A program made the translations under genes and the position numbers. Below the pieces are notes generated by a model that saw only the letters and a list, made by a program, of their open reading frames with translations, ran no database searches and was not told the DNA's origin. From the IMG/VR virus record IMGVR_UViG_3300025861_000004: a stretch of 64,000 nt of DNA; one strand, written 5' to 3'. The stretch is from a virus (taxonomy: Duplodnaviria; Heunggongvirae; Uroviricota; Caudoviricetes). Shown here piece after piece: positions 28,616-30,025 of the stretch (its first letter is position 1; each line of letters starts with the position of its first letter).

Positions 28616-30025
28616 ATGAACCCCTCCCTTGGCGTTGACCTCTACCAGCTCACCTCCTACCTCGCGCTGCGCGACTACGTGCCGGACGCGCCCCTGTGGA
28701 TGAGCTTCTTCTTCCGACGGCTCCCGCGGAACCGGCGGTTCGTGGTGGCGTGCGGGTACCAGGAGATCCTGGACCACGCGGAGCGGCTCACCTTCCGCCC
28801 TCGCGACCTCCAGTTCCTGCGCGAGGTCGTTCCCGGCCGAGACGAGCGGCTCATCTGGGACCTGGAGAACATCTCCGGGTTCACGGGCGACATCGACGCC
28901 CTCCCCGAGGGGACGCTCGCGCACGCCGGCATCGCGCGGCGCACGAGCGGAGACGTTGCCCTGGTGGGAGGGTCCCCCCTCTGCGCGGCGACCCCGCTGC
29001 TCCAGGTGCGGACCTCCCTCCTCCAGTGCAAGCTGGTCGAGACGCCCTGGCTGTCGCGGCTGAACCACATGTCGATGGTCGCCTCCAAGGCGGTACGGGT
29101 GGCGATGGCCGCCCGCTTCGACGGCGTGGACCGGCCCGTCTACGAGTTCGGGCAGCGCCGGACGGACCCCGACGCGGCCGTCCGAGCCTCCTACGCGGCC
29201 TACATCGCGGGCTGTGCGGGGACGAGCAACCTCGCCGCGGCCTCCGTGTTCGGGGTCCCGGTGGCGGGCACGATGGACCACTTCGCCGTGATGGCGTGCG
29301 AGGACGGCGGGTCGCGGGACCACTCCGAGGGGGTCGCGTTCCGCCGCATGCTGGAGCAGGCAAGCGCCTCCGTGCTCCTCGTCGACACCTACGACACTGA
29401 GCGGGGGATCCGCCGCGCGGTCCAGGCGGCGCGCGACACTAGCCGCCCCCTGAAGGGGATACGCATCGACTCCAACGTCACCGAGGAGACCGTGCGTCGA
29501 GCTCGCGCGCTCCTCGACGAACTCGGGTCCTCGCAGACCCGGATCACCGTGTCGGACGGGCTGGACGAGCACCGCGTGCTGAAGCTCGCCGCGGCCGGTG
29601 CCGACGCCTTCGGGGTCGGCGAGAACATCACCTGCTCGCCCGACGCGGCCACGGGGATCGGCGCGGTCGGGAAGGTCGTGTCGAACAGCTTCGGCGTGCC
29701 CGTCATGAAGACCTCGTCGGGGTCGGGCAAGACGACCCTGCCGGGACCGATCCAGTGCTACCGCGGGGACGGCTACGACCTGCTTCAGCTTGAGTACGAA
29801 CCCGCCCCCAGCGGTCTCACCCCTTTGCTCCAGCCGCTGTGGCGCGGAACGCGCCCCGTCGGGCCCACCTCCCGTCCTGAGGACGTGCGCCAGTACGTGC
29901 GCGAGCAGGTGGACGCGCTACCGGCCTCCATGCGCGAGCTCGGCCCGGAGTCCCATACCCCCGCTTGGCGCATCGTGCTGTCAGACGCCCTCTACGGCCT
30001 GACGTGCCGGCTGGCGGCTCAGTAG
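28616..30025 (+). CDS. pncB: nicotinate phosphoribosyltransferase (NAPRTase/PncB family)
   Basis: LYQLTSYLALRDY...FFFRRLPRNRRFVVACGYQEILDHAERLTF...GTSNLAAASVFGVPVAGTMDHFAVMAC...KGIRIDSNV matches the NAPRTase family (LYQLTM..., GTSN...G.P..GT.AHS..M, IR.DSGD). ATG lies exactly 24 nt after the variant motif ACAGCTCCGTTAC. CGACCC lies at -12. Confidence 0.75.
   Translation: MNPSLGVDLYQLTSYLALRDYVPDAPLWMSFFFRRLPRNRRFVVACGYQEILDHAERLTFRPRDLQFLREVVPGRDERLIWDLENISGFTGDIDALPEGTLAHAGIARRTSGDVALVGGSPLCAATPLLQVRTSLLQCKLVETPWLSRLNHMSMVASKAVRVAMAARFDGVDRPVYEFGQRRTDPDAAVRASYAAYIAGCAGTSNLAAASVFGVPVAGTMDHFAVMACEDGGSRDHSEGVAFRRMLEQASASVLLVDTYDTERGIRRAVQAARDTSRPLKGIRIDSNVTEETVRRARALLDELGSSQTRITVSDGLDEHRVLKLAAAGADAFGVGENITCSPDAATGIGAVGKVVSNSFGVPVMKTSSGSGKTTLPGPIQCYRGDGYDLLQLEYEPAPSGLTPLLQPLWRGTRPVGPTSRPEDVRQYVREQVDALPASMRELGPESHTPAWRIVLSDALYGLTCRLAAQ

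Follow-up and report, generated by a model that had tools for sequence, protein, structure and literature searches.

What does a phage gain from a gene for the salvage of nicotinamide adenine dinucleotide (NAD+) when that gene stands without partners of its pathway? The question is raised by a pncB-like gene at 28616..30025 (+ strand) of the 64,000-nucleotide stretch of IMG/VR record IMGVR_UViG_3300025861_000004 (hereafter the window), which encodes a 469-residue nicotinate phosphoribosyltransferase (NAPRT, PncB) of the TIGR01513 / Enterococcus faecalis / human type with its catalytic histidine at residue 222. We put at about 70% the probability that this is an intact and probably active PncB, a stable gene of a huge phage that adds capacity to the first step of the Preiss-Handler pathway and thereby sustains NAD+ supply.

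Family and active site of the phage protein

The open reading frame (ORF) runs from an ATG at 28616 to a stop codon at 30025 on the + strand, and its G+C content at third codon positions (GC3), 0.93, is on par with that of other genes in the window, where GC lies at 61–72%. Two Pfam models score above their gathering thresholds on the protein, namely NAPRTase_N (PF17767) with 43.4 bits against a cut-off of 32.6 and the NAPRTase catalytic barrel (PF04095) with 37.7 bits against 20.8. Eleven nicotinate phosphoribosyltransferase models of NCBIfam match as well, the best at 6e-86 and 9e-77, and a sequence search of the PDB places the E. faecalis NAPRT 2f7f on top (3e-42), followed by the human NAPRT and two archaeal NAPRT-type enzymes. 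An earlier sequence-only reading of this DNA had assigned the protein to the NAPRTase family along its length; Pfam, NCBIfam and PDB agree with it, the four peptide motifs that it quoted are all found in the translation, and the PF04095 profile that it proposed as a check, which could have pointed to nicotinamide phosphoribosyltransferase (Nampt) instead, confirms the family at the score given above.

An AlphaFold model built with 30 homologues as input (predicted local distance difference test, pLDDT, 91.8; predicted template modelling score, pTM, 0.91) has the two-domain fold of type II phosphoribosyltransferases (PRTases) and lies nearest to solved NAPRTs. Foldseek ranks the E. faecalis NAPRT first (4mzy; template modelling (TM) score 0.85, 2e-38), then the human NAPRT (4yub, TM 0.77), then archaeal NAPRTs, and Nampt last (TM ~0.70, 4e-20). 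The active-site residues of the E. faecalis and human enzymes are known (PMC4442680), and we mapped them through the PDB sequence alignment of E. faecalis NAPRT with the window protein, taking conservation from a 30-sequence alignment of the clade. Tyr17, Arg163, the autophosphorylated His205, Arg262 and Lys333 of E. faecalis correspond to Tyr10, Arg181, His222, Arg283 and Lys353, all of them conserved and invariant or near-invariant in the alignment. Thr162 corresponds to Gln180 at a variable site, where the human enzyme has Leu, and Ser206 (human Ser214) is replaced by a phenylalanine, Phe223, found throughout the clade. The signature at the catalytic histidine thus reads GTMDHF in the window protein and GTHAHS in E. 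faecalis; GTMDHF is common to the whole clade, the phage copy and the cellular relatives alike, and places Asp221 before the histidine where the E. faecalis and human enzymes have Ala. Since the catalytic histidine and four further residues of the active site are unchanged, and 120 of 130 columns conserved in the clade are retained (see below), we predict PncB activity and regard the phage protein as probably catalytically competent.

Could the protein instead be Nampt (NadV), the enzyme of the phage NAD+ reconstitution pathway NARP2, or an enzyme like the Namat of NARP1, and use nicotinamide with phosphoribosyl pyrophosphate (PRPP) or ADP-ribose pyrophosphate (ADPR-PP)? The type II PRTase fold is common to all of these, with the Nampt structures still at a TM score of about 0.70; the sole PHROG match, a weak one, is to PHROG 448, 'nicotinamide phosphoribosyl transferase' (8e-7); and Asp221 and Phe223 flank the catalytic histidine in place of Ala and Ser. 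The GTSN motif of the clade may correspond to GTDT (Asp219) of Nampt, a correspondence to which we give no weight here. However, the NAPRT structures are 18 orders of magnitude ahead of Nampt in Foldseek, cellular members of the clade adjoin genes for a nicotinamidase and for NadE, which amidates nicotinate adenine dinucleotide (NaAD), and pncB has no Nmnat-like or PRPP-synthetase-like (PRPS-like, Adps) partner near it. We reject a Nampt/NadV identity, as no Nampt model of NCBIfam matches at E ≤ 0.1, the PDB sequence search brings up neither a Nampt nor a Namat chain at E ≤ 0.01, and Nampt ranks below all NAPRT structures. Namat is recognized by a core that resembles Nampt (~36% identity) and by a PRPS-like Adps gene next to its own (PMC12774641); this identity is likewise rejected, the window protein lacking Nampt-level similarity and the scanned and precomputed neighbours lacking any PRPP-synthetase-like family. 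The ORF at 28616–30025 is a real gene of the NAPRT/PncB family, neither Nampt nor Namat.

Phage copies, cellular relatives and the upstream motif

Two further phage-type copies, P0002 (73% identity) and P0003 (63%), are flanked by small ORFans and not by pncA or nadE. Rooted on gp277 of Bacillus phage G, a neighbour-joining tree of 121 sequences unites the window copy with these two in 30 of 30 bootstraps, as a clade sister to 117 cellular-type sequences. The gene order of L018, a related element, is that of the window, with homologues of the genes at 27934–28272 and 30044–30334 and of an NfeD-like gene around pncB; L018 also has the TGACAGCTCC motif, described below, upstream of pncB, and a second related element, L019, likewise has it there. 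Pairwise ratios of non-synonymous to synonymous substitution (dN/dS) among the phage copies are 0.37–0.56, and of 130 columns with 95% or higher conservation in cellular sequences, all three retain 120. In addition, pncB is nucleotide-identical on five contigs from different samples. Purifying selection thus acts on the phage pncB, and the gene is conserved across three element lineages. Taken together, the three-copy clade, the common neighbours and motif, dN/dS below 1, the retained columns and the identity across five contigs mark pncB, on sequence comparison, as an old, maintained component of the element lineage and no recent passenger.

A passenger, that is, a recent capture from a host without a phage role or a decaying copy, would fit some of what is seen: pncB is solo, its nearest relatives are cellular, and in the related huge phage LR745208 (LR745208.1, L101 11992–12933) there is only a 313-residue NAPRT-like ORF, which matches residues 1–247 and then diverges, and which is possibly truncated or interrupted. 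It does not fit the full-length ORF with all its catalytic residues, the same neighbours and motif in three diverged element lineages, or a sequence that is under constraint and identical on five independent contigs from several samples.

Myxococcales, Polyangia and a few assemblies of Acidobacteriota supply the nearest relatives, at 50–57% identity. A scan of genome contigs returned Myxococcota relatives only (49–55% identity), the element itself not being among them, and a metagenome scan returned 80 cellular-type relatives, with no additional phage-clade member among those returned. The nicotinamidase PncA is a member of the isochorismatase family, and in the Myxococcales assembly GCA_016794365 (P0012) the homologue is flanked by an isochorismatase-family gene and by a glutamine-dependent NAD synthetase (NadE); in GCA_033578775 (P0004) it stands directly before NadE. 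Of 29 metagenomic relatives whose flanks extend 2.5 kb or more in both directions, 11 have a PncA homologue within 3 kb, 15 have NadE and 9 have both. The classical Preiss-Handler operon context of the cellular members argues that the clade uses nicotinate despite Phe223, and these pncA-pncB-nadE operons support nicotinate as the probable substrate of the clade. The Myxococcota PncB clade lies below all NCBIfam equivalog cut-offs yet is found in such operons, and P0004, P0012, P0022, P0055 and P0119 are each a 'hypothetical protein' at NCBI and NAPRT at JGI. A practical by-product of this work is therefore an annotation gap: a widespread Myxococcota PncB clade that NCBI labels 'hypothetical protein'.

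The sequence-only reading had also placed pncB behind an element-specific motif, and this motif is real. A copy, TGACAGCTCCG, lies at 28577..28587 (+ strand) and overlaps the stop codon of the preceding gene; it contains TGACAGCTCC at 28577–28586, and the core WCAGCTCYG, starting at 28579, stands exactly 37 nt ahead of the pncB ATG. The motif pattern has 14 matches where 2.8 are expected, and its density in the window, 4.2 per 10 kb, is about 12 times that in GC-rich cellular loci (0.34 per 10 kb over 932 kb). WCAGCTCYG occurs 27 times in the window (for example at 27501, 28579, 30334, 33003, 34243, 51888, 57452, 61661 and 63582), frequently overlapping the stop codon of the preceding gene and frequently followed by a short hairpin, and 12 of its 21 copies on the + strand have the 37-nt spacing. 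A promoter would not usually keep so constant a distance from the start codon; this suggests a fixed-length leader or an element acting at the RNA level. An inverted repeat, GGGTCG-AGC-CGACCC, can be read from the sequence between the motif and the pncB start codon (28595..28609, + strand), and hairpins akin to it follow other motif copies; in the minimum-free-energy fold of the whole leader these bases pair in another way, and the hairpin is thus a reading of the sequence and not a prediction. We suppose that pncB would be expressed behind this motif, a candidate promoter.

NAD+ supply and the competing explanations

How might such an enzyme serve the phage? PncB would convert nicotinate and PRPP to nicotinate mononucleotide (NaMN), a reaction driven by ATP via the phospho-histidine, here His222. 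The pathway is limited in rate by the step that PncB catalyses (PMC4442680), so that expression during infection, behind the phage's own motif, would increase flux at the first and limiting step of the Preiss-Handler route. For the other steps, with PncA acting before PncB and NadD and NadE after it, the phage would rely on host enzymes or on genes of its own beyond the 84 kb that we searched (the window and 10 kb on each side), and the net outcome would be an NAD+ supply that is raised or sustained in the infected cell. We infer both the effect on NAD+ and the nature of the benefit, whether general supply or resistance to NADase defences.

Several points weigh against this reading. In the 84 kb, pncB is solo, without pncA, nadD or nadE: Pfam, NCBIfam and PHROG reveal no isochorismatase, NadD/NadM/NadR, NAD synthase, Nampt, PRPP-synthetase-like protein or PnuC there, and tblastn with PncA, NadD and NadE of phage G and of Myxococcales gives nothing at E ≤ 1e-5 in the window, L006 and L007. 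The search for nadD, nadE and pncA homologues that the sequence-only reading had suggested thus came back empty over this span, and a route from nicotinamide to NAD+ would need three host enzymes; that the host has PncA, NadD and NadE is an assumption. The protein also misses every NCBIfam equivalog cut-off (NF009131, 288.9 against 330; TIGR01513, 258.8 against 297.4), and the serine that follows the catalytic histidine in E. faecalis and human NAPRT, which has a role in PRPP binding and nicotinate specificity (PMC4442680), is replaced by Phe223, invariant in the 30-sequence alignment. The dN/dS values are not very low, and dS is compressed by the extreme GC3 bias. As for the carrier, about 60 ORFs of the window and its 10-kb flanks, searched with PHROG and Pfam, include no capsid, portal or terminase gene, a 24-kb portion of the window has no megablast match in INPHARED, and scans of IMG/VR with PncB, a 464-residue ORFan and the helicase gave none either and so provide no basis for the viral label.

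The explanation that survives best beside NAD+ supply is a dedicated counter-defence, in which PncB was selected to rebuild NAD+ after cleavage by TIR, SIR2 or SEFIR NADases; we consider it possible, though unlikely. Nicotinamide would be turned into nicotinate by host PncA and into NaMN by the phage PncB with PRPP and ATP, after which host NadD would form NaAD and host NadE would form NAD+. NAD+ reconstitution is already an established phage strategy, with NARP1, NARP2 and NARP3; the step that PncB catalyses is the limiting one (PMC4442680); the gene is kept across diverged relatives of the element; and the window holds other candidate anti-defence or takeover genes, among them orphan methyltransferases, RNA ligases, a RelA/SpoT-type hydrolase and an inosine triphosphatase (ITPase)-like NTPase. 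However, the product of the NADases is not nicotinate, and no nicotinamidase gene lies nearby. The route would require three enzymes of the host, PRPP and glutamine, as well as ATP at three steps (PncB, NadD and NadE), and would for these reasons be slower and more host-dependent than NARP1, 2 or 3. The NARP preprint mentions neither nicotinate nor PncB. Nothing in the data separates counter-defence from a general need for NAD+.

A bolder version, which we find quite doubtful, would make a solo PncB a fourth and minimal kind of NAD+ reconstitution that over-supplies the host PncA-NadD-NadE route at its limiting step and so outruns Thoeris, DSR or SIR2-HerA; more remote still, Asp221 and Phe223 might shift the substrate to nicotinamide or ADPR-PP.

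What if the carrier is not a phage at all? In another giant extrachromosomal element, or in an unusual chromosomal region, the gene would serve ordinary cellular salvage. The missing capsid, portal and terminase genes (window and up to 10 kb on either side), the lack of matches in IMG/VR and in the INPHARED megablast, and the presence of a transposase, an MFS transporter and many XRE regulators would suit this explanation. Against it stand the homologues of the window's ORFans, the strong ones being found only in jumbo and huge phages. The protein at 9489–10430 (- strand) has a 41% identical counterpart (1e-76) in LR745208, a phage record of 485 kb. It also matches gp319, annotated as the head-tail connector of the Tunturiibacter phage Tunturi_5 (309 kb), at 5e-18 and, weakly, gp165 of phage G (1e-4), and its upstream neighbour is kept beside its homologue in LR745208. 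Full-length similarity to LR745208 (1e-87) is likewise seen in a 672-residue protein encoded 6–8 kb to the right of the window, which further matches Caulobacter and Brevundimonas jumbo phages of 300–357 kb at about 1e-60. The size of the carrier also bears on the question: proteins of the window recur on contigs of 273,402 bp and 331,503 bp from activated-sludge-type metagenomes, the latter contig putting the genome above 200 kb, and tiling three contigs of one ENA assembly, with a tandem-repeat array and an insertion sequence at the breaks, probably extends it to about 420 kb. About four-fifths of the ORFs lack a Pfam family, and those that can be named are typical of huge phages: a tmRNA, a tRNA and RNA-repair genes, a DnaJ-domain protein, a helicase, PTH2, AlkB, RNase H and two RNA ligases, as well as orphan methyltransferases, GmrSD_N and XRE regulators. 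The sequence-only reading's description of the gene as phage-borne is thereby supported indirectly, through the head-tail-connector homologue and the jumbo-phage protein matches; the carrier is very probably a huge tailed phage, and a non-phage carrier is improbable. A passenger gene is, in the light of the phage clade and its constraint, highly improbable, and that the protein is Nampt or Namat-like has next to no probability given the structural ranking and the operons of the cellular relatives.

Neighbouring genes and known systems

The immediate neighbours of pncB are ORFans and a pair of NfeD and SPFH (flotillin-like) genes. The NfeD-like membrane protein is encoded downstream of pncB at 30371–31006 (+ strand), as its homologue is in L018, and is followed on the same strand by a 651-residue SPFH/flotillin-like protein (31043–32998, + strand). 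The sequence-only reading had joined a NUDIX fusion and an HD protein with pncB in a theme of nucleotide salvage; neither can be tied to NAD salvage. The HD protein (3883–4662, + strand) has a RelA/SpoT-type (p)ppGpp-hydrolase domain, and the NUDIX domain, part of a fusion with an M23 peptidase, is encoded 17 kb from pncB on the opposite strand. Its gene is 46227–47249 on the minus strand, and the interval 46227–47141 proposed in that reading contains stops on the + strand. The best NCBIfam scores of the NUDIX domain (49.9 for a pyrimidine dNTPase model with a cut-off of 156, and 39.1 for NudC with a cut-off of 158) are far below every cut-off, so that no substrate class can be assigned. Tunturi_5 has a very large NUDIX protein whose gene is flanked by those of the head-tail connector and a minor tail protein and, by analogy with this position among virion genes, the M23-NUDIX fusion may be virion-associated rather than metabolic.

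The HD hydrolase forms, with a PTH2 peptidyl-tRNA hydrolase (21748–22146, - strand), an RNase H (43905–44780, + strand), an RNA ligase (45255–45956, - strand) and a second one just right of the window, and GmrSD_N (52924–53559, + strand), an RNA-repair, alarmone and translation-rescue set of the kind typical of huge phages. A YjjX-type inosine/xanthosine triphosphatase-like protein is encoded at 57890–58489 (+ strand; PF01931; TIGR00258 at 66.5 bits, below the cut-off of 117). (Deoxy)inosine triphosphate, (d)ITP, is given as the signal of the NAD+-depleting Kongming defence (PMC12967843), and, speculatively, the YjjX-type protein might destroy it. The window further encodes a full-length, one-piece transfer-messenger RNA (tmRNA) with the tag ANDNSVRLAA (56024–56383, + strand; Rfam 162.5 bits) and a tRNA that ARAGORN calls Ile, with anticodon AAT (7897–7971, - strand).

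Some features concern the structure of the element. The helicase ORF (12590–15898, + strand; 1102 residues) ends in 6.7 tandem copies of a 210-nt (70-residue) unit with 94% identity, at 14450–15860, a region in which GC falls to 0.55 with strong skew and at which one assembly breaks. The connector-like protein at 9489–10430 has weak Hint/intein matches at residues 30–132 (2jmz, 3e-4; 4e2u, 1.5e-3), and its gene is preceded by that of a protein with a TnsA-like endonuclease domain (10396–11238, - strand), a pair kept in LR745208; this may be the remnant of an intein or homing endonuclease in a virion gene. A DDE_Tnp_1 transposase is encoded at 41144–42487 of the window (+ strand) and also at 18523–19845 of L001. 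Its position differs between assemblies of the same element and contig breaks adjoin it, which points to an insertion sequence active in the phage population.

How does the phage PncB relate to systems already described? The sequence-only reading had seen in a PncB-based route a different solution to NAD+ depletion; it is not a new one, as the cluster of phage G and jumbo phages with pncB-nadD-nadE (PMC11662467) precede it. Bacillus phage G (JN638751, 497 kb), also a huge phage, has a NUDIX protein (gp273), an isochorismatase (gp275), an NAPRT (gp277), KptA (gp280), NadD (gp281) and an NAD synthetase (gp283) in one annotated cluster. Its gp277 is of the NAPRT type like the window protein (31% identity over residues 2–383, 1e-32). 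In contrast, phage G clusters the whole route, including a nicotinamidase-like protein, whereas pncB here is solo within 84 kb, and in the tree the NAPRT of phage G is Firmicutes-type and that of the window Myxococcota-type. The 'NAD-jumbo phages' described in 2024, such as Kuafu_71, carry pncB-nadD-nadE clusters that were read as phage-driven NAD+ synthesis and counter-defence (PMC11662467). Here, too, pncB is carried by a jumbo phage; however, those phages come from the gut and have complete pathways, clustered and assigned by annotation alone (PMC11662467), and the element of the window comes from activated sludge, has 66% GC and shows one gene of the pathway in the part seen. A complete Preiss-Handler cluster of the phage G or Kuafu_71 type is ruled out within the 84 kb, where tblastn and Pfam found no partners.

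Among cellular enzymes, the Myxococcota PncBs (P0012, P0004) belong to the same clade, with 50–57% identity, GTMDHF and the 120 of 130 conserved columns; the phage copies differ in forming a clade of their own (30 of 30 bootstraps) and in lacking operon partners. With the E. faecalis (2f7f, 4mzy) and human (4yub) NAPRTs the window protein has in common the two-domain type II PRTase fold (TM 0.85 and 0.77) and the conserved Tyr, two Arg, Lys and phospho-histidine, whereas identity over the structural alignment is 24–28%, and Ser is changed to Phe and Ala to Asp around the histidine. Of the published phage pathways for NAD+ reconstitution, NARP1 combines Adps and Namat (PMC12774641), NARP2 Nampt and Nmnat, and NARP3 PnuC and NadR. 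Namat and Nampt have the type II PRTase fold in common with the window PncB, which nevertheless belongs to another subfamily, would use nicotinate instead of nicotinamide, ADP-ribose (ADPR) or nicotinamide riboside, and has no partner gene beside it; none of NARP1, 2 and 3 uses PncB.

The annotations of several cultured jumbo phages also list a nicotinate phosphoribosyltransferase. Phage-borne PncB is thus already known, and what is distinctive here is the divergent Myxococcota-type clade and the solo gene. NAPRT-type genes are rare in phages, with 24 of 50,697 phage records matching, many of them short and without annotation; NadV-like enzymes have been reported from 22–33% of medium and jumbo phages (PMC9503650). 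Evidence on how Preiss-Handler routes fare against NAD+-depleting defences would fill a real gap, if an incremental one beside NARP1, 2 and 3. If the enzyme is active, it would add a high-GC environmental huge phage to those that manipulate the NAD+ of their hosts, and would do so through the Preiss-Handler pathway, not the common Nampt branch.

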